Source: a virus (lineage: Duplodnaviria; Caudoviricetes). Taken from it: a DNA stretch of 64,000 nucleotides. Below, piece by piece: positions 3,709 to 63,784 of the stretch (the stretch's first letter is position 1; each line of letters begins with the position of its first letter). The notes below the pieces were generated by a model, which made no database searches, was not told where the DNA came from, and saw only the letters and a program-made list of their open reading frames with translations. The DNA lies in the IMG/VR virus record IMGVR_UViG_3300035667_000058, positions 2,111 to 66,110 of that record, one strand, 5' to 3'. Both the position numbers and the translations under genes were made by a program.

Positions 3709-4623
3709 ATGAGTTACGACGACGATGACGACGGCAGCAATGGCGACAATCCGCAGACCAACGCGCAGGCGATCATCAACACGGTCCGCGAACTCGTCAA
3801 CGCCGATGTGATCCACCTCGCCGACGCGCCTGCGGTGTTGGTCTTGCCCGCTGGCAAGACTGCGCAGAGCGTCAAGCCGTTCCTGGACGCGTACCTCAAG
3901 GCGCCCGAGCGCAAGACCGGCACGGCGCAGCTCAGCACGCTCGACAGTTTTTGCCAGCACGTCAATCGGTTCAGCGATGAGGACAGCGCGCTGTTCGCCG
4001 ACGACAACCCCACCAGTCCCAGGCTCGTGGGCGTGCTGAACTATCACGAGAGCAAGGCGGGCTCGCCGCGGTTTGGCGACCATCGCGCGTCGTACACGTT
4101 TCCGCTGTCGGTCGAGTGGCTGTGCTGGACGCGCACCAGGCCCATGAATCAGGCGCAGTTCGCCGAGTTCATCGAGGACCACATCGCCGACGTGCTCGAC
4201 CCGAGCAAGATCGGTGAGGACACGTGGGCGTTTTGCGAGCAGCTCGAGATCGTGCTCGCGCAGCCCTCGGCGCTCATGGCTCTTAGCAAGGGTTTGAGCG
4301 TGTACGTCGATGGCAAGGTCACCAACAACGTGAACCTTGCGGACGGCACGGGGTCGATCGCGTTCAGCGAGGAGCACAAAGACGCGCAGGGTGCGCCGCT
4401 CAAGGTGCCGCGCGGGTTCGCCGTGGGGATCCCGGTGTTCACGGGCGGCGAGCGGTACGCGTTGCCAATGCGACTTCGATACAAGGTCATGGGCGGCAAG
4501 GTGACGTGGGAGCTGTTGCCGCACCGGGTGCAGCAGGCGTTCAGGCATGCGGTCACCGAGGCCTGCACCAAGGCTGCGGAGGCGACCAAGCTGCCGCTGT
4601 ACTACGGGACGCCTGAGACATGA
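3709..4623 (+). CDS. DUF2303 (YfdQ family) protein
   Basis: LDSFCQHVNRF, FGDHRA, SVEW, QAQFAEFIED, GIPVF motifs. Confidence 0.85.
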   Translation: MSYDDDDDGSNGDNPQTNAQAIINTVRELVNADVIHLADAPAVLVLPAGKTAQSVKPFLDAYLKAPERKTGTAQLSTLDSFCQHVNRFSDEDSALFADDNPTSPRLVGVLNYHESKAGSPRFGDHRASYTFPLSVEWLCWTRTRPMNQAQFAEFIEDHIADVLDPSKIGEDTWAFCEQLEIVLAQPSALMALSKGLSVYVDGKVTNNVNLADGTGSIAFSEEHKDAQGAPLKVPRGFAVGIPVFTGGERYALPMRLRYKVMGGKVTWELLPHRVQQAFRHAVTEACTKAAEATKLPLYYGTPET

Positions 4624-5795
4624 ATATCGCGCTCGCAGAGATTCGGGTGGGCAAGCGGCATCGCAAGGACATGGGCGATATCGATGGCCTGGTCGAATCG
4701 ATGCGAGTGTTGGGGCTGCTGCAGCCCATAGGCGTGACAGCGGACTACGAGTTGGTGTTCGGCCAACGGCGATTGAAGGCTGCCAAAAAGCTCGGGTGGG
4801 AGACGATCGCAGCGCGTGTCATCAAGGTCGACAAACTGCTCGCCGAGCAGGACGAGAACGAAGTACGCAAGGAGTTCACGCCCAGCGAACGGGTGGCAAT
4901 CACCGAGGCGATTCGCGAGCGGATCACAGAGCGACGGGGCCGGCCGGGGAAAACAAATGTGGAAGTTTTTCCACAAATACCGGCTGGCACGAAGACCCGC
5001 GAACACGCCGCGGTCAAAGCCGGTTTTGGCAATGACGCCACCTACCGCCAGGCCAAGGCGGTCGTCGACCGGGGCACGGCCGACCTGGTGCGCGCCATGG
5101 ACAGCGGTGGGCTTTCCATCAACCTCGCGAGCAAACTCGCCGAGCGCCCAGTCAAAGACCAGCAACGCGTCGCGACGGCCGTGCTCGGCGGCCAAGACGC
5201 GCGCAATGCCGTGCGCGAACTGCACCGCGAGCAACGCATTGCCCGGCTTGCCGAAGTCGTGGGCAGCAACGTCGAGCTTGGGGGCAGCCTCGGCAAGCAC
5301 CCGATCATTTACGCCGATCCGCCGTGGCGCTACGAGCACGCCGAGTCCATGAGCCGCGAGATTGAAAACCAGTATCCCACCATGGAAATCGCCGACATCT
5401 GCGCGCTGCCCGTGCGCGACGTGAGCACCGAAGACGCGGTGCTGTTTCTGTGGGCGACCTCGCCCAAGTTGGCCGAGGCGCTGCAGGTAGTGACCGCTTG
5501 GGGCTTCACGTACCGCACGTGCATGGTGTGGGATAAAGAGCGGATCGGCATGGGCTACTACGCCCGCCAGCAGCACGAGTTGCTGTTGATCGCGACGGTG
5601 GGCCAGCCACCAGCGCCGCGGCCAGAAGCTCGCCCGCCCAGTGTGATCCGTGCACCGCGTGGCGAGCACAGCAGCAAGCCCGTGCGCTTCTACGAGATCA
5701 TCGAAAACATGTATCCCGAGCTGCCGCGGCTCGAGTTGTTCAGCCGCTCGCCGCGCACGGGCTGGAAGGTATGGGGCAATCAAAGTGCCGCATGA
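4620..5795 (+). CDS. ParB-N domain fused to MT-A70 family adenine methyltransferase
   Basis: N-term GLLQPI..LVFGQRRLKA and EQDEN..R; C-term IYADPPW, LFLWAT, WGFTY, HSSKP, RLELFSR. Confidence 0.9.
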   Translation: MNIALAEIRVGKRHRKDMGDIDGLVESMRVLGLLQPIGVTADYELVFGQRRLKAAKKLGWETIAARVIKVDKLLAEQDENEVRKEFTPSERVAITEAIRERITERRGRPGKTNVEVFPQIPAGTKTREHAAVKAGFGNDATYRQAKAVVDRGTADLVRAMDSGGLSINLASKLAERPVKDQQRVATAVLGGQDARNAVRELHREQRIARLAEVVGSNVELGGSLGKHPIIYADPPWRYEHAESMSREIENQYPTMEIADICALPVRDVSTEDAVLFLWATSPKLAEALQVVTAWGFTYRTCMVWDKERIGMGYYARQQHELLLIATVGQPPAPRPEARPPSVIRAPRGEHSSKPVRFYEIIENMYPELPRLELFSRSPRTGWKVWGNQSAA

Positions 5796-20909: not shown

Positions 20910-21772
20910 CCGACTACGACGCCAGCAACCCCGCGGTCAACTACGCCCGGCATCGCGACACGGGCTTGTATGTCTTTGTGCACGCGGGCGAGGTGCCCGA
21001 AGTCGAGTGGTGCGCGCTACCATGGGTGTGGTTCAAAGAGCCCAGCGGCCGGCGCGAGTGTGCGCGCGCGTGGCTGATTGGTGAATCGAGCAACATGTAC
21101 TGCGAGCGTCACCAGCACGAGCCCAAGGTGTGCCCGTTTTGTAGAGGAGTTCCAAAAACGTGATGACGAAAGGACCTGAGCATGGCTGACATGGAGCTGA
21201 TAGCGAAGAACGCATATGCCGCCTACGGCGCTGTCACCGACCACAAAAACTACCAGGGCTTGCCGATGCCCGAGTGGGAGAATCTGACGCCGAAGATTCG
21301 CGAGGCGTGGGTCGCCGCGGCGGTCAACGTGTGGGACGCCGCAACCGCAACGCCGAAGGGAATCGAGTGACATGTCACTGCTCAACATCCTTGTCATCGC
21401 GTTCATCTTCTGTGTGCTCTTTGGCGCGTTTGGCCACGGCCGCTACGGCCCCGCGCCGAGTTGGTCGCCCGCGGGCATTGTCGTGGCTGTGCTGCTTGTC
21501 TTGTGACTGACCGGCAACCTGCACCGCTAAACACACATGACGCTCATCGCCCGATCACGCACCCCGAACCCGCGGACCCTGCGCACCGCGCTCTGCGTTG
21601 CGCTTGTGGCAGCGCTGGTCACGGCCGTTGGGAGCGCGGCGGCGCTCGGGCTTGGGCTTGAGATTGGCCGGCGGCTGTGCTTGCGGTTATGGCCCCGCTG
21701 GCCCGCGGCCGAGGTGTTCGGCGCTGCGACGGCCGATGACTTGGCCGCGCAGTGGGCAGGCGAGGGCGAGTC

Positions 21773-24178
21773 ATGAGCAGCAACAACACAGTCCGCGCTC
21801 ACTGCGAGCGTAACGGCCCTACTGGTGAGGCCGCGGCGGATCCTCCCGCGGTGGGCGCGGACGCTGTACCCGTGCGCGTGCTGTGCGGCGACATGCGGGA
21901 GGTGCTCGCGGCCATGGCGCCCGAGAGCGTGCACGCGATCGTGACCGACCCGCCGTACGGGCTTGAGTTCATGGGCAAGCAGTGGGACCAGCAGGTGCCC
22001 GGCGTTGAGTACTGGCGGGCGTGTCTGCGCGTGGCCAAGCCCGGGGCGTACTTGCTGGCGTTCGGGGGCACGCGTACGGCGCACCGGCTGGCGTGCGCGA
22101 TCGAGGATGCGGGGTGGGAGCTGCGCGATTGCGTGTGCTGGCTGTACGGGTGCGTCACGCCGGATACGAAGGCGCTCTCGCGGCGCGGCTGGCTGACGCA
22201 TGACGAAATCACGCCGCAAGACGAACTCGCACAATGGTCACCCACGAGCAGACAGATCACATGGGCACGTGCTGAGCGCATCAACGTCTGGGATTTCGCA
22301 GGTGAGTTGGTCCACCTGCAAAACCGCCACACTGATCAGCTACTGACACCGAACCATTCGGTGCACGCCGTGGTTCGTCGACATGCGCGGGACGATGCGC
22401 CGACTCGGCATGAAGTGGTGCAAGCCGGTGAGCTAAAGCCCTGCTGGCAGGTGCAGATCCCGATGTCTGGCATTCTGAACGAAGGTCGCGAGATCGATCC
22501 CGAATACGCCTATATCGTTGGGTGGTGGTTGACCGATGCCTGGCGTCACGGCGACGGCAAGGCGTGCATGTTTTCGCAGTGCAAGCCTGAGAAGCTCGCG
22601 AAGTTGAGAGCAGCTCTGTCGCCGTACGCACCGAGCGAATATGTAAAACAGGCACGCGAGCCGCAGCACTCCAACGAGCACACATTCTATGTAACCGGAC
22701 CGCTGGCGAGACGCTTGATCGAAGAGTTCCCCGCGCGCGTGCTGAGCTGGGAACAACTCGGGTGGTCGCGAGAAGCTCGCATGTCATTGATGCGTGGTCT
22801 TCTGGACGGCGATGGGACCGAGCGCGCCAGTCAGCACGGCAGCGCTTTCTGGTCCAAGGACCCTGCGCGGAGGGAAGTGGTCCTAGCCATTTGCGTCAGC
22901 ATCGGCTGGCGCGCCTACATCGACGTCGACAACGACTGTGTGAACTTCCATCGTGAGCGCGGCGCCACGCAGCTTCAAAAGCGACACCGCGACCGAGCGC
23001 CAGCACGGCCGTACAATGGCAAAGTCTGGTGCCCGACGATGCCAGAAGGCACATGGATAGCGCTTCGCAACGGGCGGCCATTCATCACGGGCAACAGTGG
23101 CTTTCCGAAATCGCATGACATCAGTAAGGCGATCGATCGTGAGCTTGGTGCGGTGAGGGAACTGACTCGTGCGGGGCGAGTCCAGCGAGACGGTTACGGC
23201 GACGATTGGGATACAGGTAGCAGCGAAAGCCGCCCGCGCTATGACGCACCCGCCACGCAAGCCGCGCAGCAGTGGCAAGGCTGGGGCACTGCGGCCAAGC
23301 CCGCATGGGAGCCCGTGTACCTCGCGCGCAAGCCGTTTCGGGGCACCGTCGCGCAGTGCGTGCTCGAGCATGGCTGCGGCGGGCTGAACATTGACGGGTG
23401 CAGGATTGGGACCAGTGAGGACTTGAACGGCGGCGCGTACTCGTCTGATGGCGGGCGCGACGGCGCTGCGTACCAGCTGCGCGGCGAATGCGGCCAGTAC
23501 AAACAGCCGCTCGGCCGATGGCCGGCGAATCTGGCGCTGGACGAACGGGCGGCAGAAATGCTGGATGCTCAGACGGTCGGGCAAGTGCACGGGGCGGGCT
23601 GCCGTCGAGCGGGCTCAAGTGCTCCGCGCGAGAGCACTTCGGGCGAGCACGTCTATAACCCGCGGGTCACCACGACCGGCGCAATGCATCGCTTCGGCGA
23701 CGACGGCGGCGCCTCACGTTTCTTTTACACGAGCAAGGCGTCCCGCTCCGAGCGCGAAGCCGGGCTCGAGCGCTTCACGCCCGCCATCGTCAACGACGGC
23801 CGCGACACCAGCATGGACACGCCCTACCAGCGCGGCGACACCTTACGCAAGTGCCTTCATCCCACGGTCAAACCGATCTCCCTGATGCGCTGGCTCGTGC
23901 GCCTGGTCACCCCGCCAGGCGGCATCGTGCTCGACCCGTTCACGGGCTCGGGCAGCACGGGCGTAGCCGCAGTACTCGAGGGCGCGCGGTTCATCGGTGT
24001 TGAACTCTCGCCCCAGTACGCCGAGCTCGCGACCGCGCGCATCGCGCACGCCAGCGACGAGGACGACGGCCCGCAGCTGACGCTGTTCGACAAGCAGGAG
24101 ATAGCCCGGCCGGTCAGGCCCGCGCAGACAAGCCTGTTTGACGACGTGCCCAATGACGAGCACGAGGGCGCCCAATGA
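21773..24178 (+). CDS. N6A/N4C (beta-class) DNA methyltransferase containing an intein
   Basis: IVTDPPY, WLYG|SGFPKS split by the intein, HPTVKP, LDPFTGSGSTG. Confidence 0.92.
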   Translation: MSSNNTVRAHCERNGPTGEAAADPPAVGADAVPVRVLCGDMREVLAAMAPESVHAIVTDPPYGLEFMGKQWDQQVPGVEYWRACLRVAKPGAYLLAFGGTRTAHRLACAIEDAGWELRDCVCWLYGCVTPDTKALSRRGWLTHDEITPQDELAQWSPTSRQITWARAERINVWDFAGELVHLQNRHTDQLLTPNHSVHAVVRRHARDDAPTRHEVVQAGELKPCWQVQIPMSGILNEGREIDPEYAYIVGWWLTDAWRHGDGKACMFSQCKPEKLAKLRAALSPYAPSEYVKQAREPQHSNEHTFYVTGPLARRLIEEFPARVLSWEQLGWSREARMSLMRGLLDGDGTERASQHGSAFWSKDPARREVVLAICVSIGWRAYIDVDNDCVNFHRERGATQLQKRHRDRAPARPYNGKVWCPTMPEGTWIALRNGRPFITGNSGFPKSHDISKAIDRELGAVRELTRAGRVQRDGYGDDWDTGSSESRPRYDAPATQAAQQWQGWGTAAKPAWEPVYLARKPFRGTVAQCVLEHGCGGLNIDGCRIGTSEDLNGGAYSSDGGRDGAAYQLRGECGQYKQPLGRWPANLALDERAAEMLDAQTVGQVHGAGCRRAGSSAPRESTSGEHVYNPRVTTTGAMHRFGDDGGASRFFYTSKASRSEREAGLERFTPAIVNDGRDTSMDTPYQRGDTLRKCLHPTVKPISLMRWLVRLVTPPGGIVLDPFTGSGSTGVAAVLEGARFIGVELSPQYAELATARIAHASDEDDGPQLTLFDKQEIARPVRPAQTSLFDDVPNDEHEGAQ
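22151..23095 (+). mobile_element. Intein (315 aa) with LAGLIDADG homing endonuclease
   Basis: Starts CVTPDT; LTPNH block B; GWWLTDA and GLLDGDG; ends VWCPTM...FITGN followed by Ser. Confidence 0.9.
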
Positions 24179-30601: not shown

Positions 30602-32341
30602 GTGCTCGGCAGCTACCTACAAAGCGCCCTGTTGCGCCTCGACGGCTGGGAAAACGCGGTCACGGGGCTCGGCACCGCGCTCGACAAGACGGTTGCCGCC
30701 CTGTTCAGCCGCAACGGCGCTGCGGCCTATGGCGATGAGTACTTCGGGCAGCTCTACGAAGACGACCCGCTCGCGCGCCGCATCTGCGAAAAAATCCCCG
30801 ACGAGATGCTACGCGCCGGGTTTGACCTGCTCATGGGCGATGCGGACAACGCCCAGCAGCTTGCGACCAGCGTCCGCGACGCGCTCAAGGACCTGCACGC
30901 GATCGCGCGCGTCAAAGACGCACTCGTGTGGGAACGCGTGCACGGTGGCGGCGCGGTGTTTATCGGCGCCGAGGACGGGGTGGGCGATTCAGCGCTGCCG
31001 CTCGACGAAGAGCGCTTGCAAGCGATCACGCACCTGACGGTGATCGACAAGCCCACCATGGTTGCAAAGACATGGTATGGGCCGGCGGAGCGCGGCGCCG
31101 GCCGCCCTGCGACGTGGGAGATCACGCCGGTCGACGCTGGCGGCAGCGGCCCGATCGAGGTGCATGAAAGCAGGCTGCTGCTGTTTCCAGGCGGTCGCGT
31201 CACGCACAAGCGCCGGATCGAGCTCAGGGGGTGGGGGCAGAGCACTCTGCGCGCGATTCACGACGCGCTGCGCGATTACAACATGAGCTGGGCCGGCGTG
31301 TCGCACATGCTGCAATCGGCCAATCAAGATGTCTGGTACATGGACGGTCTGAAGAACGCGCTCGCGAGCGGCAGCGCGGGCATGCGCGAGTTTTTCAGCG
31401 CGCGCTTTGCGATGGCCCAACAGAAGATGGGCCCCAACCATGCGATCGCGCTGGATTCTGAGCGCGAGAAATTCGAGCGTCACCCGTCGACGCTCACGGG
31501 CATCCCTGAGACGCTGCAGCAGGTCTGTCTGCGCATGAGCGCGATCAGCGACATGCCCCTGACGGTGCTGTTCGGCATGAGTCCCGCGGGGATGAACGCG
31601 ACCGGCGAAAGCGACCTGCAAATCTGGCACTCGGCCGTCGGCGCGATGCAGGGCGAGAAGCTGCAGCCGGCGCTCGAGCGCTTGATCCGCTTGCTGATGA
31701 TCAGCGACAAGGGGCCCACGGGCGGCGAAGAAATCGAAGGCTGGTCGATCCGGTTTCGCGCGCTGCGCACGCTCAGCGAAATCGAGCAAGCGGACCTGCG
31801 GGCCAAGCAGGCGGGTACCGATAAGCTGTACGTGGACATGACGGCGCTGTTGCCCGAAGAGGTCGCGACCAACCGGTTCCGGCCCGAGGGCTTCTCGACT
31901 GCTACCAGCATCGATCTCGACGTGCGCAAGCAGATCATGGCAGCCGAGTTGCAGCGCATGGACGAGCCTGACGATCCCGCGAAGGATGACAGCGCCGCGG
32001 GTGACCCCGCACCTGACGGCGGGGCGCCTGCGGGGGGCGACACCACCACCGTGGCCGACACGGCGATGAACGGTGCGCAGGTGGCGTCGTTGCTCGAGGT
32101 GATCCAGGCCGTCGCGGCAGAGACCATCCCGCGCGCAACGGGCGTGCAGCTGCTCATTCGCGCATTCCAACTCACCGCTGAGCAAGCCGAGTTGCTCATG
32201 GGCGACGTGGGCAGGGGCTTCGAACCCAAAAAACCGGCCGCCCCGCAGGCATTTGGCGGCCTGCCAAAGCCGCCCGTGCCACCCGAACCCGACCCGGCCA
32301 CCACGCCGCCCCCACCAAACACCACCAAGCCCAAGCCGTGA
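30602..32341 (+). CDS. Portal protein (DUF1073 family)
   Basis: DGWENAVTGLG, MPLTVLFGMSPAGMNATGESD. Confidence 0.9.
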   Translation: MLGSYLQSALLRLDGWENAVTGLGTALDKTVAALFSRNGAAAYGDEYFGQLYEDDPLARRICEKIPDEMLRAGFDLLMGDADNAQQLATSVRDALKDLHAIARVKDALVWERVHGGGAVFIGAEDGVGDSALPLDEERLQAITHLTVIDKPTMVAKTWYGPAERGAGRPATWEITPVDAGGSGPIEVHESRLLLFPGGRVTHKRRIELRGWGQSTLRAIHDALRDYNMSWAGVSHMLQSANQDVWYMDGLKNALASGSAGMREFFSARFAMAQQKMGPNHAIALDSEREKFERHPSTLTGIPETLQQVCLRMSAISDMPLTVLFGMSPAGMNATGESDLQIWHSAVGAMQGEKLQPALERLIRLLMISDKGPTGGEEIEGWSIRFRALRTLSEIEQADLRAKQAGTDKLYVDMTALLPEEVATNRFRPEGFSTATSIDLDVRKQIMAAELQRMDEPDDPAKDDSAAGDPAPDGGAPAGGDTTTVADTAMNGAQVASLLEVIQAVAAETIPRATGVQLLIRAFQLTAEQAELLMGDVGRGFEPKKPAAPQAFGGLPKPPVPPEPDPATTPPPPNTTKPKP

Positions 32342-33222
32342 GCGCGGCGTCGCAACGCACCATTGCCGAGTTGCGGGTGCGTCGCATGATGGCGCAGCTC
32401 GCCGGACGCAAGCAGCGCAGAGCCCGCCGCAAGATACCCGAGCAGGGCTACCCGCGTGCATCGCAGCTCGCGTACTTCCAGCTGTGTAAGCGCGTGATTG
32501 CGGACTTGGCGGGGCTCATCACTGCCGAGGTGCTGCCACAGCTGCCTGCGCTGCTCGCGCAAATTCGTGTGCTGCACCCGACGCGTACGCTTCGTACAGA
32601 TGCCGCCGACGATATCGATTCCGCGTTCCCCAGCGCAGCACGCGTGCTGTTCGACTTGCCCGTGGACCTCATGGAGATCGCTCGCAGCGTCAGCGTGTTC
32701 AACCGCCGCGCACTGCTCAAGCAGGTGCATGCCGGGCTCGGGATCGATCTGCTGGCGGGCGAGCCGTACCTCGCAAACCACCTTGAGCTGTTCGTCGCGG
32801 ACAACGTGCGGCTCATCACTTCAGTCGCAGAAACGCACATGGACACCATCCGCGGGATCGTCATGCGCGCAGCGCGCGAGGGCACGCGGGCATCCGACGC
32901 GGCAAAGGAAATCGCAGCACGGACAGACGTCTCTGAGTCACGTGCGCAGCTGATCGCGCGCGACCAGATCGGCTCGCTCAACGGCGAACTCACGCAGCTA
33001 CGTCAAGAGAGCCTGGGAATCGAGCGTTACACGTGGGTCACATCGCGTGACGAGCGGGTGCGCGACGACCATGCCGAGCTCGATGGGACCACTCAAAGCT
33101 GGGACGATCCGCCGGTCGTGAACCAGAAGACAGGTCGCACCGGGCACCCGGGCCAGGACATCAACTGCAGGTGTACAGCAAGCCCAGTGGTCGATGACCT
33201 TCTCGAAGCACTGGGCGCGTAG
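32338..33222 (+). CDS. Minor head protein (SPP1 gp7 / Mu F family)
   Basis: LIARDQ, WVTSRDERVRDDH, HPGQDINCRC. Confidence 0.9.
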   Translation: MSAASQRTIAELRVRRMMAQLAGRKQRRARRKIPEQGYPRASQLAYFQLCKRVIADLAGLITAEVLPQLPALLAQIRVLHPTRTLRTDAADDIDSAFPSAARVLFDLPVDLMEIARSVSVFNRRALLKQVHAGLGIDLLAGEPYLANHLELFVADNVRLITSVAETHMDTIRGIVMRAAREGTRASDAAKEIAARTDVSESRAQLIARDQIGSLNGELTQLRQESLGIERYTWVTSRDERVRDDHAELDGTTQSWDDPPVVNQKTGRTGHPGQDINCRCTASPVVDDLLEALGA

Positions 33223-33266: not shown

Positions 33267-34832
33267 GTGCAGGTGTCAATGCCCGCGCGTGAGCGCCCTA
33301 CCGGCAGTGTGTTGCGCTTGGACTTCGCGCCGATCCGCGGCGCGCGGGTAACACCGCAGGGGTTTTTGCGGCTCGACGCGTCGCTAGGCCGCACGGGCGT
33401 GCTCACGTATCAGACCCCCGATGGGCCGCGCCGTGAGCTGCGCTTGCCCGAAGAAGTGTTCAAGGCCGATTCGCTCGCAAGTGCGATGGGCGCAGTGGTC
33501 ACCGACCTGCACCCGCCGCGCGAAGACGCATTCATCACCACGCAGAACTACCGCAAGTGGGGCGTGGGGTATGTCGGCGACGACGTGCGCCAGGACGGCA
33601 ACCTCGTGCGCGCCAGCATCGTCATTCAGGACCAGGCCGTTCAGGAGATGATCCTCGCGGGCAAACGCCGCGAGATCAGCCCCGGCTACATGTGCCGGCT
33701 GGACCCCACAGCAGGCCGGTACGACGGCATCGAGTACGACGCGGTTCAACGCGATATCGTGGTGAACTCTGTTGGGCTCGGGCCGAGCAACTGGGGCCGG
33801 CAGGGCAGCGAAGTCGCGTTGCGGCTCGACAGCTTCGATGCCACGGCTGCGATCGGCCAATACGGCAGCAACACGGCGTTGGGCGACTTCGTGCGCACCA
33901 CCATGCTTGCGCGCGGGATGACCGTCACCCAACTCGCCGAGCAGACGGGCATCATCGCGCCCAAGCCCAAAGAAGAGTCACCCTTGCTGCGCGTCGGATC
34001 GCTCGTCGACCGCTCATACATCTTGCGCGAGATCCTCGAAGGCTGGACACCGCGGCCGAGTGACGAGCAGCTCAAGGCGCTTGCCAAGGTGCTCGATTGC
34101 ACGCTTACGCAGCTGCTGGACCTCATACCCGAAGAGCTGCGCGCTGATTCGCGCACGAGCGCACGCACTGTTGCAAACGCAGGCGTTGTAGACGCCGGCA
34201 AAGAACCGCTTATACGCGATCACGTTGACCCGACAACGGGCAAGGCGACCCAGAAGAAGAGGCCATGCATGGATCCAATCGAGATACGGCTAGACGGACT
34301 CACGATCTCGCTGCCCAAGCACGAGGCCGAGGTTGTGCAAAAGGCGGTGGGCGAGCGCGACGCAAAGATCAAGGCGCACACGGCCGAGCAGAGCACGTTG
34401 CAGGCCAAGCTCGACGGGCTGACCGAGCAGCACGCCAAGGCCAAGAAAGACTTGGCCGAGCTGCCCGAGAAGCTGCGCACGGAGATGAGCGCGCGGGCTG
34501 ACCTGCTGGGCCATGCACGCCGGGTGCTCGGGCCGGATATCAAGCTCGACGGCAAGACCGATCGGCAGGTGCGCGAGGAGGTGCTCAAAAAGCTTTCTCC
34601 CAACGTGGTGCTCGACGCCAAGGACGACACCTACATCGCAGTGCGTTTCGACGTCGCACTCGAGGGCTTCAAAGAGCCCAGCGCCAGCGAAAAGGTGCGC
34701 GCAGCAGTGACCGGCGGCACCGATCCCAAGGTTGCGCGCACCGATGCCAAGGACGATCCCGATCCGGCCAAGGCACGCGCCGAGATGGTCGAGCGCAACC
34801 ACAACGCGTGGAACACCAAGCCGGCGAACTGA
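33267..34832 (+). CDS. DUF2213 prohead protease/scaffold with internal XRE-HTH insert
   Basis: TPQGFL, RTGVLTY, PEEVF, VTDLHP, EISPGY, QRDI; coiled-coil C-terminal half. Confidence 0.85.
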   Translation: MQVSMPARERPTGSVLRLDFAPIRGARVTPQGFLRLDASLGRTGVLTYQTPDGPRRELRLPEEVFKADSLASAMGAVVTDLHPPREDAFITTQNYRKWGVGYVGDDVRQDGNLVRASIVIQDQAVQEMILAGKRREISPGYMCRLDPTAGRYDGIEYDAVQRDIVVNSVGLGPSNWGRQGSEVALRLDSFDATAAIGQYGSNTALGDFVRTTMLARGMTVTQLAEQTGIIAPKPKEESPLLRVGSLVDRSYILREILEGWTPRPSDEQLKALAKVLDCTLTQLLDLIPEELRADSRTSARTVANAGVVDAGKEPLIRDHVDPTTGKATQKKRPCMDPIEIRLDGLTISLPKHEAEVVQKAVGERDAKIKAHTAEQSTLQAKLDGLTEQHAKAKKDLAELPEKLRTEMSARADLLGHARRVLGPDIKLDGKTDRQVREEVLKKLSPNVVLDAKDDTYIAVRFDVALEGFKEPSASEKVRAAVTGGTDPKVARTDAKDDPDPAKARAEMVERNHNAWNTKPAN

Positions 34833-34877: not shown

Positions 34878-35648
34878 ATGCAAACGACCTTCCCACTGCG
34901 CCCCCTGCGCGCCTTCGCTGGCATGCACGCCGACACCTACCCGTCAGCGTTCATTAGCCGCGCGCTGTCGACGCGTCAGCTCGTGGAGCTGACCTTCGGC
35001 ACGGCCGATGGCACGTACACCGTGACCATCAACGGCGTCGAAGTCGCAAACTTTGTGGCTGCGACCAAGACCGCCACGCAGATCCGCGACGCCATCGCGG
35101 CCGACCTCGCTGCGAGCGCCGCGCCGGTGATCGCGACCCCGAGCAGCACCAACAAGCTGCTGCTCGAAAACGCCGGTTACGAAGCCGCGTTCACCATCGC
35201 GATTCCCACCATCGCGGGTTACACCAGCAGTCAGACAGTACCGCAGGGCCAAGTCGCGCCGTTCGGCGCGGGCGTGGTACGCGACGACGGTGCGGCCGTC
35301 AGCGGCAAGCAGTGCCGGCTGCCACGCTTGGCCGCCGATGTGACGTTGGGCGGGTTCCTCGGAGTGCTCGCAAGCAATACGGCCAAGATGCCGGCCAACG
35401 GCTGGCCCGACAAGTCCATGCCCGACATCATGCGCGCCGGGCACATCTACGTACTGGTCGAAGGCACGGGCATCGAAGGCGCGGGGCTGTTCATGCGCTT
35501 CGCGACCGGCGCCGGCGGCAGCCAGCTCGGCGCGTTCCGCGGCGATGCCGACAGCGGCACCGCAGTCGCAGTGCCCGGCATGCGCGCACTCGAGACATGG
35601 ACCACGGGCGGCATCGTGCTCGCCGAGCTCCAGCCGCAAACGGCCTGA
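34878..35648 (+). CDS. Capsid decoration/cement protein
   Basis: APFGAGVVR, IMRAGHIYV; between scaffold and capsid genes. Confidence 0.7.
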   Translation: MQTTFPLRPLRAFAGMHADTYPSAFISRALSTRQLVELTFGTADGTYTVTINGVEVANFVAATKTATQIRDAIAADLAASAAPVIATPSSTNKLLLENAGYEAAFTIAIPTIAGYTSSQTVPQGQVAPFGAGVVRDDGAAVSGKQCRLPRLAADVTLGGFLGVLASNTAKMPANGWPDKSMPDIMRAGHIYVLVEGTGIEGAGLFMRFATGAGGSQLGAFRGDADSGTAVAVPGMRALETWTTGGIVLAELQPQTA

Positions 35649-35687: not shown

Positions 35688-36653
35688 ATGCTCGACGAAC
35701 GGCGACAGCAAGACCTACTGGCCATGAAGGCGGCTTTATGCAGCCTCAACCTCGACGCGAATGAGACGGCGATGCTCGATCGCCAACTCAAGTACGTCGA
35801 GACCACCATCTACAAAGTGCAGTACCCGGATTTGCGGCACAGGCAATACATTCCGCAGGACGGCAGCACGCCCGCGGGCGCGGACTCGATTCTGTATCGG
35901 CAGTTCGACACCGTGCGCAACGCGAAGATGATCAGCGACTTCGCTGATGATCTTCCCTTTGCAGACGTCATCCAACGAGAGTTCCCCATCCCGATCAAGC
36001 CGCTCGGCAGCGCGTACAAGTACAGCCTGCGCGACCTGCAGCACGCGGCATTCAGCGGCGTGCCGCTCGATACGCTGCGCGCGTCCGCTGCGCGCGACTC
36101 GATCGAGTACGAGCTCGACGACATTGCGTGCTTTGGCCGTCCGGAGGTCGGGTTGCTCGGCCTGGTCAACAACCCCAACGTGGACGTCATCTCGGTGGGC
36201 ACCGGCGTCGGCGGCAACACATGGGCGCTCAAGACGGCGCTGGAGATCATCGCGGACCTCGCGCGGCTCAACAGCTACATCGTCACCAAGACGAACCAAA
36301 TCTACCGGGCTAACACGATCCTGATGGGAACGGCGCTGTTCGAGAAGCTCAGCAGCATGCCGTTTTCGAACCTCAGCGACCGCACCGTCATCGAGTGGTT
36401 CCGATCGAACAACCCGGGCATCACCATCGATGGCTGGCACCGGCTGAGCACCGCGAACGCAGCCGGCACCGGCCCGCGCGTGGTGGCGTACCTGCGCGAT
36501 CCGCGCGTGCTTCAAGAAAAGATCCCGATGGAGTTCACGCAACTTCCGCCCCAGCCCAAGGGCCTGGCGTTCGTCATCAACACATGGGCGCTCACTGCAG
36601 GCGTGCACGTGTATCAGCCCGGCGCGATGGTCTACATGGACGGCGCGGCGTAG
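35688..36653 (+). CDS. Major capsid protein (DUF2184)
   Basis: RQLKYVE, GLVNNPNV, AGVHVYQPGAMVYMDG. Confidence 0.9.
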   Translation: MLDERRQQDLLAMKAALCSLNLDANETAMLDRQLKYVETTIYKVQYPDLRHRQYIPQDGSTPAGADSILYRQFDTVRNAKMISDFADDLPFADVIQREFPIPIKPLGSAYKYSLRDLQHAAFSGVPLDTLRASAARDSIEYELDDIACFGRPEVGLLGLVNNPNVDVISVGTGVGGNTWALKTALEIIADLARLNSYIVTKTNQIYRANTILMGTALFEKLSSMPFSNLSDRTVIEWFRSNNPGITIDGWHRLSTANAAGTGPRVVAYLRDPRVLQEKIPMEFTQLPPQPKGLAFVINTWALTAGVHVYQPGAMVYMDGAA

Positions 36654-62521: not shown

Positions 62522-63784
62522 TTAAGAGCGGCGCAGTCGCACTACGTTGCTGGCCTTCATCGACAGCTCGGGGATGGCATCGCGCAGATCCGGAAACGGC
62601 TCGTACTGCAGGTCACTGAGCACCTGCGCGCTACGGTTGTACCGCTCCATCATGGCCGGTGTAACGTGCCCAGTGCGGGCCGTGATCCATCCCCAGCCCT
62701 TGCCAGCGCGCAGCGCCCACGTCACGAACGTCGCGCGCGTGTCATGGAAACGCATGCATTGAACGTTCGGCGCGTCGCTGAACAACAGGGCTCGCGTCAC
62801 ACCGGCCAAGCGCAGGTCGGCGCGCAGCGTCTCGGCTTCGCGACCTTCGGGCGCATCAAGGTCGCAGATCACCGGGCCCAGTTTGTTCGAGCCGCAGTGC
62901 TCGTACCATGCTTGCAACAGCGCCAGGACGTCGGGTTGCAACTCGAACATCAGCGGTACCCCGCTCTTGGTGACGATCGCACTCATCGTGCCGTGTGCAA
63001 AGTCGACCCACGTCCACACCAACGGCGCGAGCGAGCTCTTGCGCAGGCCGGTGTAGCAGCCGAGCACGTAGTGAATGCGTCGGCCGAGCGGGATGGCGCC
63101 GCACCGGAGCATCGACAGCAGTTCATCTGGATAGAGAAACGCGAACATCTTGGCCGGGTCGCGGCGCGGCTTGAGGTCGACGCTCACCGGATTGTCGGTG
63201 CGCAGCCGGCCGGGCTTGATCGCGAGGTCAAAGAGTCGCTTGGTGACCTGGTACACTTGAAATTTGGTGCTCGAGCGCCACGGCTTGCCGCGCTTGGCGT
63301 GCGCTGCTTGCGCCGCCTTGGCGAAGCAGTGTTCGATGTCTTCCTCGGTGACGTCGGCAACGGCCGTGTCACCGATGAACGGGTACACGTGCGCTTTCAG
63401 CCGTGTCGCATCGGACCCCGCCGACTTCTTATCGCCAAGGCCGCGCACCTCGCCATGCTTGGCAAACAGCTTGCCGCTGGTCCACTCCTTGCCGAACTCG
63501 CGCACGGTCGCGCTCGCGCTGCGCGGGGCATCATCGTCGAGCGCCGCCGCGGTCGGCAGCGTTCGGCAGCGCTCGGCGAGCTTCGCTGTCATCTCGATCG
63601 CTCGGGCTCGGTCTGCATCCCGGTCGGTCAGCGCGCGACCCCGGTAGGCCAGCCGCTTTTTCGCGCGCTGCCCGTTGACCTGCAGTCGCGCGCACCAGCA
63701 ACCCGTTCCATCTGCGTAGGACTTCCACTCGGCCGAACCATTGCCCGAGCCCTTGTCCCGTCGCGGTTTCCGTGTCGTTGCCAT
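62522..63784 (-). CDS. int: Tyrosine integrase
   Basis: YTGLRKS, TKSG, RFHDTRATF, RTGH, MERY catalytic set. Confidence 0.93.
   Translation of the reverse strand: MATTRKPRRDKGSGNGSAEWKSYADGTGCWCARLQVNGQRAKKRLAYRGRALTDRDADRARAIEMTAKLAERCRTLPTAAALDDDAPRSASATVREFGKEWTSGKLFAKHGEVRGLGDKKSAGSDATRLKAHVYPFIGDTAVADVTEEDIEHCFAKAAQAAHAKRGKPWRSSTKFQVYQVTKRLFDLAIKPGRLRTDNPVSVDLKPRRDPAKMFAFLYPDELLSMLRCGAIPLGRRIHYVLGCYTGLRKSSLAPLVWTWVDFAHGTMSAIVTKSGVPLMFELQPDVLALLQAWYEHCGSNKLGPVICDLDAPEGREAETLRADLRLAGVTRALLFSDAPNVQCMRFHDTRATFVTWALRAGKGWGWITARTGHVTPAMMERYNRSAQVLSDLQYEPFPDLRDAIPELSMKASNVVRLRRS

Follow-up and report, generated by a model that had tools for sequence, protein, structure and literature searches.

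The DNA analysed here, referred to as the window, is a stretch of 64,000 nucleotides that comprises bases 2111-66110 of the 66,110-bp virus record IMGVR_UViG_3300035667_000058, for which completeness is rated at 100%. Positions 33267-34832 of its plus strand hold a gene for a protein of three parts: a DUF2213 prohead protease, an XRE-type helix-turn-helix (HTH) module at approximately residues 200-290, and a beta-hairpin with a coiled-coil scaffold. Read from the GTG at 33267, from which all residue numbers are counted, the protein has 521 amino acids. Its database homologue P0001, 100% identical to it, begins at Met5 (ATG 33279), so the real start of the gene may lie there, four residues later. 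Besides the Pfam family DUF2213, the whole protein matches phrog_530, “head maturation protease” (E-value 6.6e-71).

The protein and its insert

A preliminary description of this DNA had placed an XRE-like HTH with a loop insertion at plus-strand positions 33831-34148, flanked by LRLD|S and LRAD|S. Both the coordinates and the flanks are exact: the codon of Ser189 begins at 33831 and that of Asp294 ends at 34148, giving an insert of 106 residues between LRLD188|S189 and LRAD294|S295. The fold assignment is likewise borne out. The XRE / Cro-C1 HTH families considered were PF13443, PF01381 and PF13560. Scanned alone, the insert scores 33.1 bits with HTH_26 and 25.7 bits with HTH_3, above the respective Pfam cut-offs of 22 and 23, each match spanning only the C-terminal half of the profile, and it falls just below the cut-off of HTH_31 (26.2 bits, cut-off 27), where the match covers profile positions 1-59 across the loop. 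A template-free AlphaFold2 model of the window protein, built on 39 homologues, has a mean predicted local distance difference test (pLDDT) score of 79.6. In this model the insert has the five-helix XRE-type HTH fold, with helices at residues 204-215, 220-227, 251-257, 266-276 and 280-285 and pLDDT values of 83-97 outside the loop.

Foldseek searches of the PDB match the predicted insert to SinR (template modelling (TM) score 0.83 on target, root-mean-square deviation 2.6), 434 Cro (TM 0.82), the N-domain of CapH (0.80), C.AhdI (0.79) and DdrO (0.76), all with probability 1.00. The module thus shares its predicted five-helix fold with XRE/Cro-C1 factors, but unlike them it sits within a virion-assembly protein, is acidic (net charge -4, isoelectric point (pI) 4.78), has a loop of 23 residues in place of the turn, and has no paralogue among the 562 open reading frames (ORFs) of the window. 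A homodimer prediction for two copies of the insert (alignment A3) scored 0.23 against a mark of 0.42 and weighs neither way. Helices 4-5 (residues 262-288, TxRPSDEQL..LAK.LD......L..LIP) weakly resemble the N-terminal domain of TniQ from CRISPR-associated transposons (E-value 0.09-0.12), and 8bd5_Q is likewise among the Foldseek matches.

The loop (33948-34016, plus strand; residues 228-250) lies between helix 2 and helix 3 of the HTH. It is specific to the clade of the window protein and carries a conserved PLLRxG motif. No secondary structure is assigned to it by DSSP, and its block has pLDDT values of 66-76. That it is an insertion, as had been claimed, agrees with its absence from a subgroup of relatives, namely the nine most distant long forms of alignment A1 and also L008, L010 and L038. 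These no-loop relatives have the short turn before the recognition helix that is usual in an HTH, whereas 23 residues separate the helices in the window clade. The helix 3 region of the clade reads mostly (R/G/Q)-T-(W/Y)-(I/V)-L-E-x-I-L-D-G.

The part upstream of the insert (33306-33830, plus strand; residues 14-188) is predicted to be a serine prohead protease with a T4 gp21-like fold. Residues 28-185 match DUF2213 (PF09979) with 107.2 bits against a cut-off of 22 (E-value 1.1e-30), and residues 14-172 form a confident domain in the AlphaFold2 model (pLDDT mostly 84-95). Foldseek aligns this domain with the T4 gp21 protease (PDB 5jbl; E-value 3e-5, probability 1.00, TM 0.59 on target), and the matches of the window protein in BFVD, a database of viral structures, carry the name prohead protease. 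His82 and Ser138, which we take to be the catalytic pair, are invariant in 39 of the 39 sequences of alignment A1.

Downstream of the insert (34272-34829, plus strand), the model gives a beta-hairpin at residues 337-350, then a helix of 70 residues and then shorter helices. This scaffold part may also be made alone. A GAGG at 34259-34262 stands six bases before an in-frame ATG at 34269 (Met335; feature 34259-34271, plus strand), a likely internal start that would probably yield a nested scaffold protein of 187 residues. Methionine occupies this column in 27 of the 39 sequences of alignment A1, and of 61 distinct protease-scaffold ORFs from related loci, 59 have a methionine 4-8 residues before the hairpin, in most cases preceded by purine-rich DNA that resembles a Shine-Dalgarno site. 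Since the HTH lies upstream of Met335, use of the nested start would confine it to the full-length and presumably low-copy protease form.

Nested protease/scaffold genes are known from Mu (I/Z) and lambda (C/Nu3), and the record of phage B3 annotates “protease | scaffolding protein” over one stretch. The window gene resembles genes of the Mu I/Z type in its N-terminal protease, its C-terminal scaffold and a conserved in-frame internal methionine with a site like a Shine-Dalgarno sequence. It differs in having DUF2213 instead of PF10123 (Mu-like_Pro, for which the window protein gave no match at an E-value of 0.1 or lower) and in the extra HTH between protease and scaffold.

Aspartate motifs and candidate cleavage sites

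Both flanks of the insert lie in or beside linkers that the AlphaFold2 model gives with low confidence. Candidate cleavage site 1, L-R-L-D188|S189 (33819-33833, plus strand), falls within the linker of residues 179-190, where pLDDT is below 50, and D188 is invariant in alignments A1 and A2. Candidate site 2, L-R-A-D294|S295 (34137-34151, plus strand), was recognised from the sequence and reads L-(Q/R)-(K/R)-L-D-(G/S) in most relatives; the second low-confidence stretch covers residues 304-335. The scaffold part holds further copies of the motif, RLD343|G, KLD383|G and KLD428|G, in which D343 and G344 are invariant and D383, D428 and G429 nearly so in alignment A1. Seven copies of [RKNH][LMFIVA]D[GSA] occur in the window protein, or 1.34 per 100 residues, against 18 in the 16,912 residues of the other picked ORFs of the window, or 0.106 per 100 residues. 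None of 5000 shuffles of the protein reached seven.

The flanks fit the pattern (R/K/N)-(L/M/F/A)-D|(A/S/G), which also occurs close to the N-terminus in both the portal and the capsid protein. The major capsid protein (35688-36653; PF09950) contains N-L-D23|A24 (35748-35759, plus strand), a likely maturation site with a motif conserved in relatives, and it probably loses the 23 residues that precede the cut. In 58 distinct capsid proteins encoded beside DUF2213 proteases, the leader varies in length and Asp follows it in 58 of 58, with Arg at P3 in 50 and Ala at P1' in 50. As a separate observation, nearly every capsid protein that accompanies a DUF2213 protease has the motif R-L-D|A-N-E-T. 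The portal protein (30602-32341; PF06381) has the same motif near its N-terminus as R-L-D14|G15, followed by Trp (30635-30646, plus strand). At the same relative place, 43 distinct portals mostly read R-x-D-(S/G/N)-W, the strict pattern being present in 20 of the 43, which hints at processing of the portal N-terminus at D14|G15.

Capsid proteins of cultured relatives provide further points of reference. For the T1-like phage TLS, the published study gives ASDMGIW as the mature capsid N-terminus by Edman degradation (PMC11447400). In the annotated TLS capsid ORF (at L166:15072-15281) this sequence directly follows ..G-A-K-N-D32, so 32 residues are removed (fewer with a later start), and not the 45 that the study infers. 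The capsid protein model of T1 is described as starting at residue 27 (PMC11945409), directly after ..V-K-Q-D26. The model of the Pa193 capsid protein starts at residue 66, and its PB1 orthologue reads A-M-D64-S65-N66.

The T1 (CPTT1_028) and TLS (gp33) proteases share family, gene order, the motif at the protease end and the hairpin motif with the window protein, and the capsid proteins of T1 and TLS are cut after Asp before Ala at a place homologous to D23|A24 of the window. They differ in being 370-371 residues long, without HTH, and in having only approximately 25-40 residues from protease end to hairpin. The protease domain ends in KLNLD|A in T1 and KLNLD|S in TLS, compared with LRLD|S in the window protein.

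Because of the motif statistics, the capsid N-termini of TLS, T1 and Pa193/PB1 and the motif at the protease end, the DUF2213 protease family likely cleaves after Asp. D188|S189 and D294|S295 are plausible cut sites of the window protein on the same sequence grounds. Release of the insert as a free fragment of approximately 11.5 kDa is a reasonable inference, given that a predicted XRE fold, absent from many relatives, lies between protease and scaffold and is flanked by matches to the Asp motif of relatives.

Occurrence of the module in DUF2213 proteins and other head proteases

An HTH between protease and scaffold is not universal in DUF2213 proteins. Among the best 120 of 447 homologues found in 7999 scored candidates, 40 match a hidden Markov model (HMM) of the insert; in these, the protease end and the scaffold part are 93-148 residues apart. 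This slot spans 12-54 residues in the other 80, except in P0102, for which the estimates overlap, and P0096, with 193 residues. P0091 retains a remnant of the last HTH helix only. In the related loci the insert is present in 10 of 83 protease ORFs, a count that includes the locus of the window itself, a contig entered twice as L003 and L004, and two nearly identical loci, L008 and L009. It was found in none of 80 prophage-type loci of species-representative genomes, a scan that used the full-length alignment as query and gave only distant short forms and no close relative.

The slot could carry variable cargo, a possibility raised at the outset for which other lineages give positive cases: P0096 holds DUF6900 (PF21841) there, and L020 (2136-2450) holds a different module of approximately 85 residues with the motif LPDSAFAY and no Pfam match. 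Given these occupants, the slot after the protease domain is permissive. Some relatives have N-terminal extensions in place of a slot module.

On a FastTree phylogeny of 129 protease-domain rows, parsimony requires no fewer than 13 changes in the presence of the insert, and at least three on strongly supported branches; many forks of this tree are open, so the counts of changes are rough. The loop-bearing forms, 29 rows, fall essentially into a single group that also takes in two rows with shortened loops and one that lacks the HTH, and the no-loop HTH forms are scattered among rows that lack the HTH. By its distribution the module is an accessory that has been repeatedly gained or lost, which speaks against its being structurally essential. 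Its origin by simple fusion of a neighbouring gene was considered and is unsupported, because neither the window nor the 9205 ORFs of related loci, both strands included, contain a free-standing homologue of the insert.

Similar modules occur well beyond this family. A profile of eight inserts was compared with 1.84 billion cluster representatives and gave 136 matches at an E-value of 0.001 or lower. All 131 new matches were scanned with HMMs made for this analysis and 35 of the 131 against Pfam or PHROGs, so that the family counts are lower bounds. Sixteen of the 136 are DUF2213 proteins, among them P0127, whose protease is preceded by two HTH modules. Another 16 or more, with one or two HTH modules each, come from at least five other head-protease families. 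These are Mu gpI-like proteins (PF10123/phrog_328: P0126, P0146, P0147, P0150, P0168, P0221, P0230), phrog_976 (P0142, P0247), phrog_15531 (P0201, P0246), phrog_3017 (P0165), ClpP-like phrog_2976/94 (P0252), phrog_80 (P0178) and “major head and protease” fusions (P0176, P0242). The last two are protease-HTH-major capsid fusions of 839 and 891 residues, with the HTH in place of a delta or scaffold domain. The uncultured Mu gpI-like proteins P0126, P0147 and P0150 thus do carry the element that distinguishes the window gene from the Mu I/Z type.

The module either precedes the protease or separates it from the scaffold or capsid part, and the C-terminal part is always free. Its signature is L-G-D-F-L-R ... 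L-A-x-A-A-G-I ... S-T ... I-L-x-G-E-I-x-R-P-P-D-x-R-L ... L-G-V-S ... L-(I/V)-P. Tandem pairs are found in P0126, P0127, P0142 and P0147. Most of the other scanned matches are proteins of 2-11 tandem XRE repeats, and proteins of 200-1150 residues consisting of tandem XRE domains only are among the top matches of the profile (P0125, P0130, P0132, P0138, P0167 and others). Recurrence across unrelated head proteases suggests, from sequence comparison, that the HTH module has a capsid-related role, as a passenger not yet described. Literature searches at the level of titles and abstracts returned no account of a head protease or scaffold protein that bears an HTH, in line with the earlier remark that no such example was known.

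The architectures also bear on the idea that the HTH senses DNA in the head, where it would tether the protease or scaffold to incoming DNA and couple packaging to proteolysis, to scaffold release or to anchoring of the first DNA end. The module is linked to a protease domain in every architecture found, the tandem pairs favour the idea, and the adenovirus protease, which has DNA as a cofactor, provides a parallel. However, cleavage at the candidate flank sites would sever the HTH from the protease, the domain is acidic in the window clade, and proteolysis precedes packaging in well-studied tailed phages. This explanation is very improbable.

Searches for cultured phages returned no HTH-bearing form. 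None of 1114 records of an isolate phage collection covered at least 80% of the window protein by tblastn, and the P0142 and P0126 queries gave no records at 80% coverage. P0168 gave five records at 80% or more, but its N-terminal 181 residues matched only from residue 92 or 105, and the HTH part was absent.

The remaining genes place the protease-HTH-scaffold gene in a head module, as read from a Pfam/PHROGs scan. The portal gene lies upstream, a gene for a MuF-like head morphogenesis protein (32338-33222) stands between the two, and a cement protein gene (34878-35648; PF22758) follows on the 3' side, with the major capsid protein gene 3' of it. The window also encodes a large terminase, a tail sheath, a tape measure protein, a DnaB-like helicase and DNA methyltransferases, and a tyrosine integrase on the minus strand (62522-63784). 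Because of the integrase, the tail sheath and these other genes, the source is a temperate contractile-tailed phage, a myophage of 66 kb. A link between the HTH and temperate lifestyle was considered and shows no visible difference: integrase PF00589 occurs in two of four near-complete HTH-bearing records, and in the window phage, versus two of five short-form records. Among the coding regions of the window are those for an 808-residue protein with DNA methyltransferase matches at both ends (21752-24178) and a ParB-like/methyltransferase fusion (4620-5795).

Possible fates and roles of the module

The reading that is tentatively preferred, at a little under an even chance, is that the insert is an accessory passenger with an XRE fold, carried into the procapsid by the protease-scaffold protein and cut free at maturation. 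The C-terminal scaffold would take the protease-HTH-scaffold protein into the procapsid, and the internal start at Met335 would also make the scaffold alone, leaving protease and HTH only on the low-copy full-length form. After assembly the protease would most likely cleave behind the Asp of the pattern (R/K/N)-(L/M/F/A)-D|(A/S/G), with the capsid protein (D23|A24) and perhaps the portal (D14|G15) among its candidate substrates. It would also be a candidate substrate itself, at D188|S189, D294|S295 and further scaffold sites. Self-cleavage would free the HTH module inside the head as a folded, acidic protein of approximately 11.5 kDa. As a passenger it would not be needed for building the capsid; its action would be on the packaged DNA or would follow ejection.

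Known systems provide partial parallels. T4 internal proteins bear a capsid-targeting sequence that is removed by gp21. The window module would resemble them as a small protein of the procapsid core, freed by a protease of gp21 fold that cuts after an acidic residue. It would differ in lacking an N-terminal targeting peptide, in being an internal domain (residues 189-294) and in a copy number that is probably low. The “putative scaffolding protein” of Pa193 (gp24) and PB1 (gp22; PDB 9b40) resembles the window protein in its N-terminal DUF2213 (E-value 3e-8) and helical C-terminal part. In the Pa193 study, residues 286-326 of gp24 are retained at the five-fold vertices of the mature virion, and liquid chromatography-mass spectrometry detects gp24 in virions (PMC11456595). 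Because this fragment stays in virions, retention of pieces of the protease-scaffold family is not far-fetched. The “helix-turn-helix” described in that study is the coiled scaffold hairpin and not an XRE domain (PMC11456595).

Several points weigh against the passenger and its release. All 39 aligned inserts are acidic (net charge -2 to -9, pI 4.3-6.0), and the helix-turn-helix of the window clade is interrupted by the loop; both weaken a DNA-directed role. Two motifs could be structural, since D343-G344 forms the turn of the predicted hairpin and D383 lies in the long helix. The C-terminal boundary L-(I/V)-P-x-x-x-R is common to HTH modules of other protease families, probably of other specificity, so that part of site 2 may belong to the HTH domain itself. 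The 35 matches scanned against Pfam or PHROGs were chosen by length and domain position and not at random, and no cultured phage with an HTH-bearing head protease appeared among the queries tried (window protein, P0142, P0126, P0168). Fragments made by prohead proteases are usually degraded or exit the capsid. The preliminary description had proposed the release of a free DNA-binding protein. Its XRE fold, and flanks that match the Asp maturation motif of relatives, stand, but DNA binding by the insert in the window clade is doubtful because of the uniform acidity of the inserts and the 23-residue loop that replaces the turn.

The same features lend some weight to a role that involves protein only. 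The XRE fold would then serve the procapsid core as a spacer, in oligomerisation or in control of the protease, would bind no nucleic acid, and would be degraded or expelled at maturation. Besides the acidity of all the inserts, this role agrees with the recognition-helix region, which is mostly hydrophobic or acidic and follows the conserved PLLRxG loop in place of a turn. PB1 has no HTH in the slot after the protease, unlike the window protein, but a long, acidic and apparently disordered stretch. The helix 3 sequence is alike across unrelated protease families, which suggests a common partner that is not sequence-specific. On the other hand, close relatives assemble without the HTH, the bulk of the scaffold would lack it if the nested start is used, and most modules of other families have the ordinary uninterrupted XRE pattern, several as tandem pairs. 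A role in protein only is regarded as rather unlikely.

A regulator coupled to assembly is quite improbable. The uncleaved and unassembled protein would bind phage DNA or RNA in the cytoplasm and tune late genes, until entry into the procapsid removed it. Autoregulation by the P22 scaffold is a precedent, the fold is of the repressor type, the proteins to which the module is fused always have a scaffold part, and the patchy distribution fits a dispensable regulatory addition. Against these stand the acidic and interrupted HTH of the window clade and the likeness of helix 3 in phages of unrelated genomes, contrary to what sequence-specific operators would lead to; no operator-like target was identified, though no search for one was made.

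The HTH module is best regarded as a variation on protease-scaffold fusions and on internal head proteins released by a protease, and there is a real chance that it represents a general, unrecognised cargo system. The broadest version is unlikely as a whole: XRE-HTH modules would be widespread and overlooked capsid cargo that at least six protease families load by fusion to the protease or scaffold. The protease would cut them free, and they would travel with the genome into the next cell, where, before any phage gene expression, they would serve as a ready-made regulator, a DNA-binding factor or a decoy for host defences under XRE control.

Recurrence of the module in protease-capsid fusions and in head proteases of several kinds (DUF2213, Mu gpI-like, ClpP-like and others) turns an odd gene into a testable general pattern. 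By-products of the analysis are a likely Asp cleavage motif of the DUF2213 proteases and a scaffold gene that is probably nested; both would improve the annotation of mature head proteins in T1-like and PB1-like phages and in many uncultured ones. Should the module be freed and stay in the head, it would be a simple modular route for loading a repressor-like protein into virions, and this would bear on the control of early infection and on the engineering of capsids for cargo.

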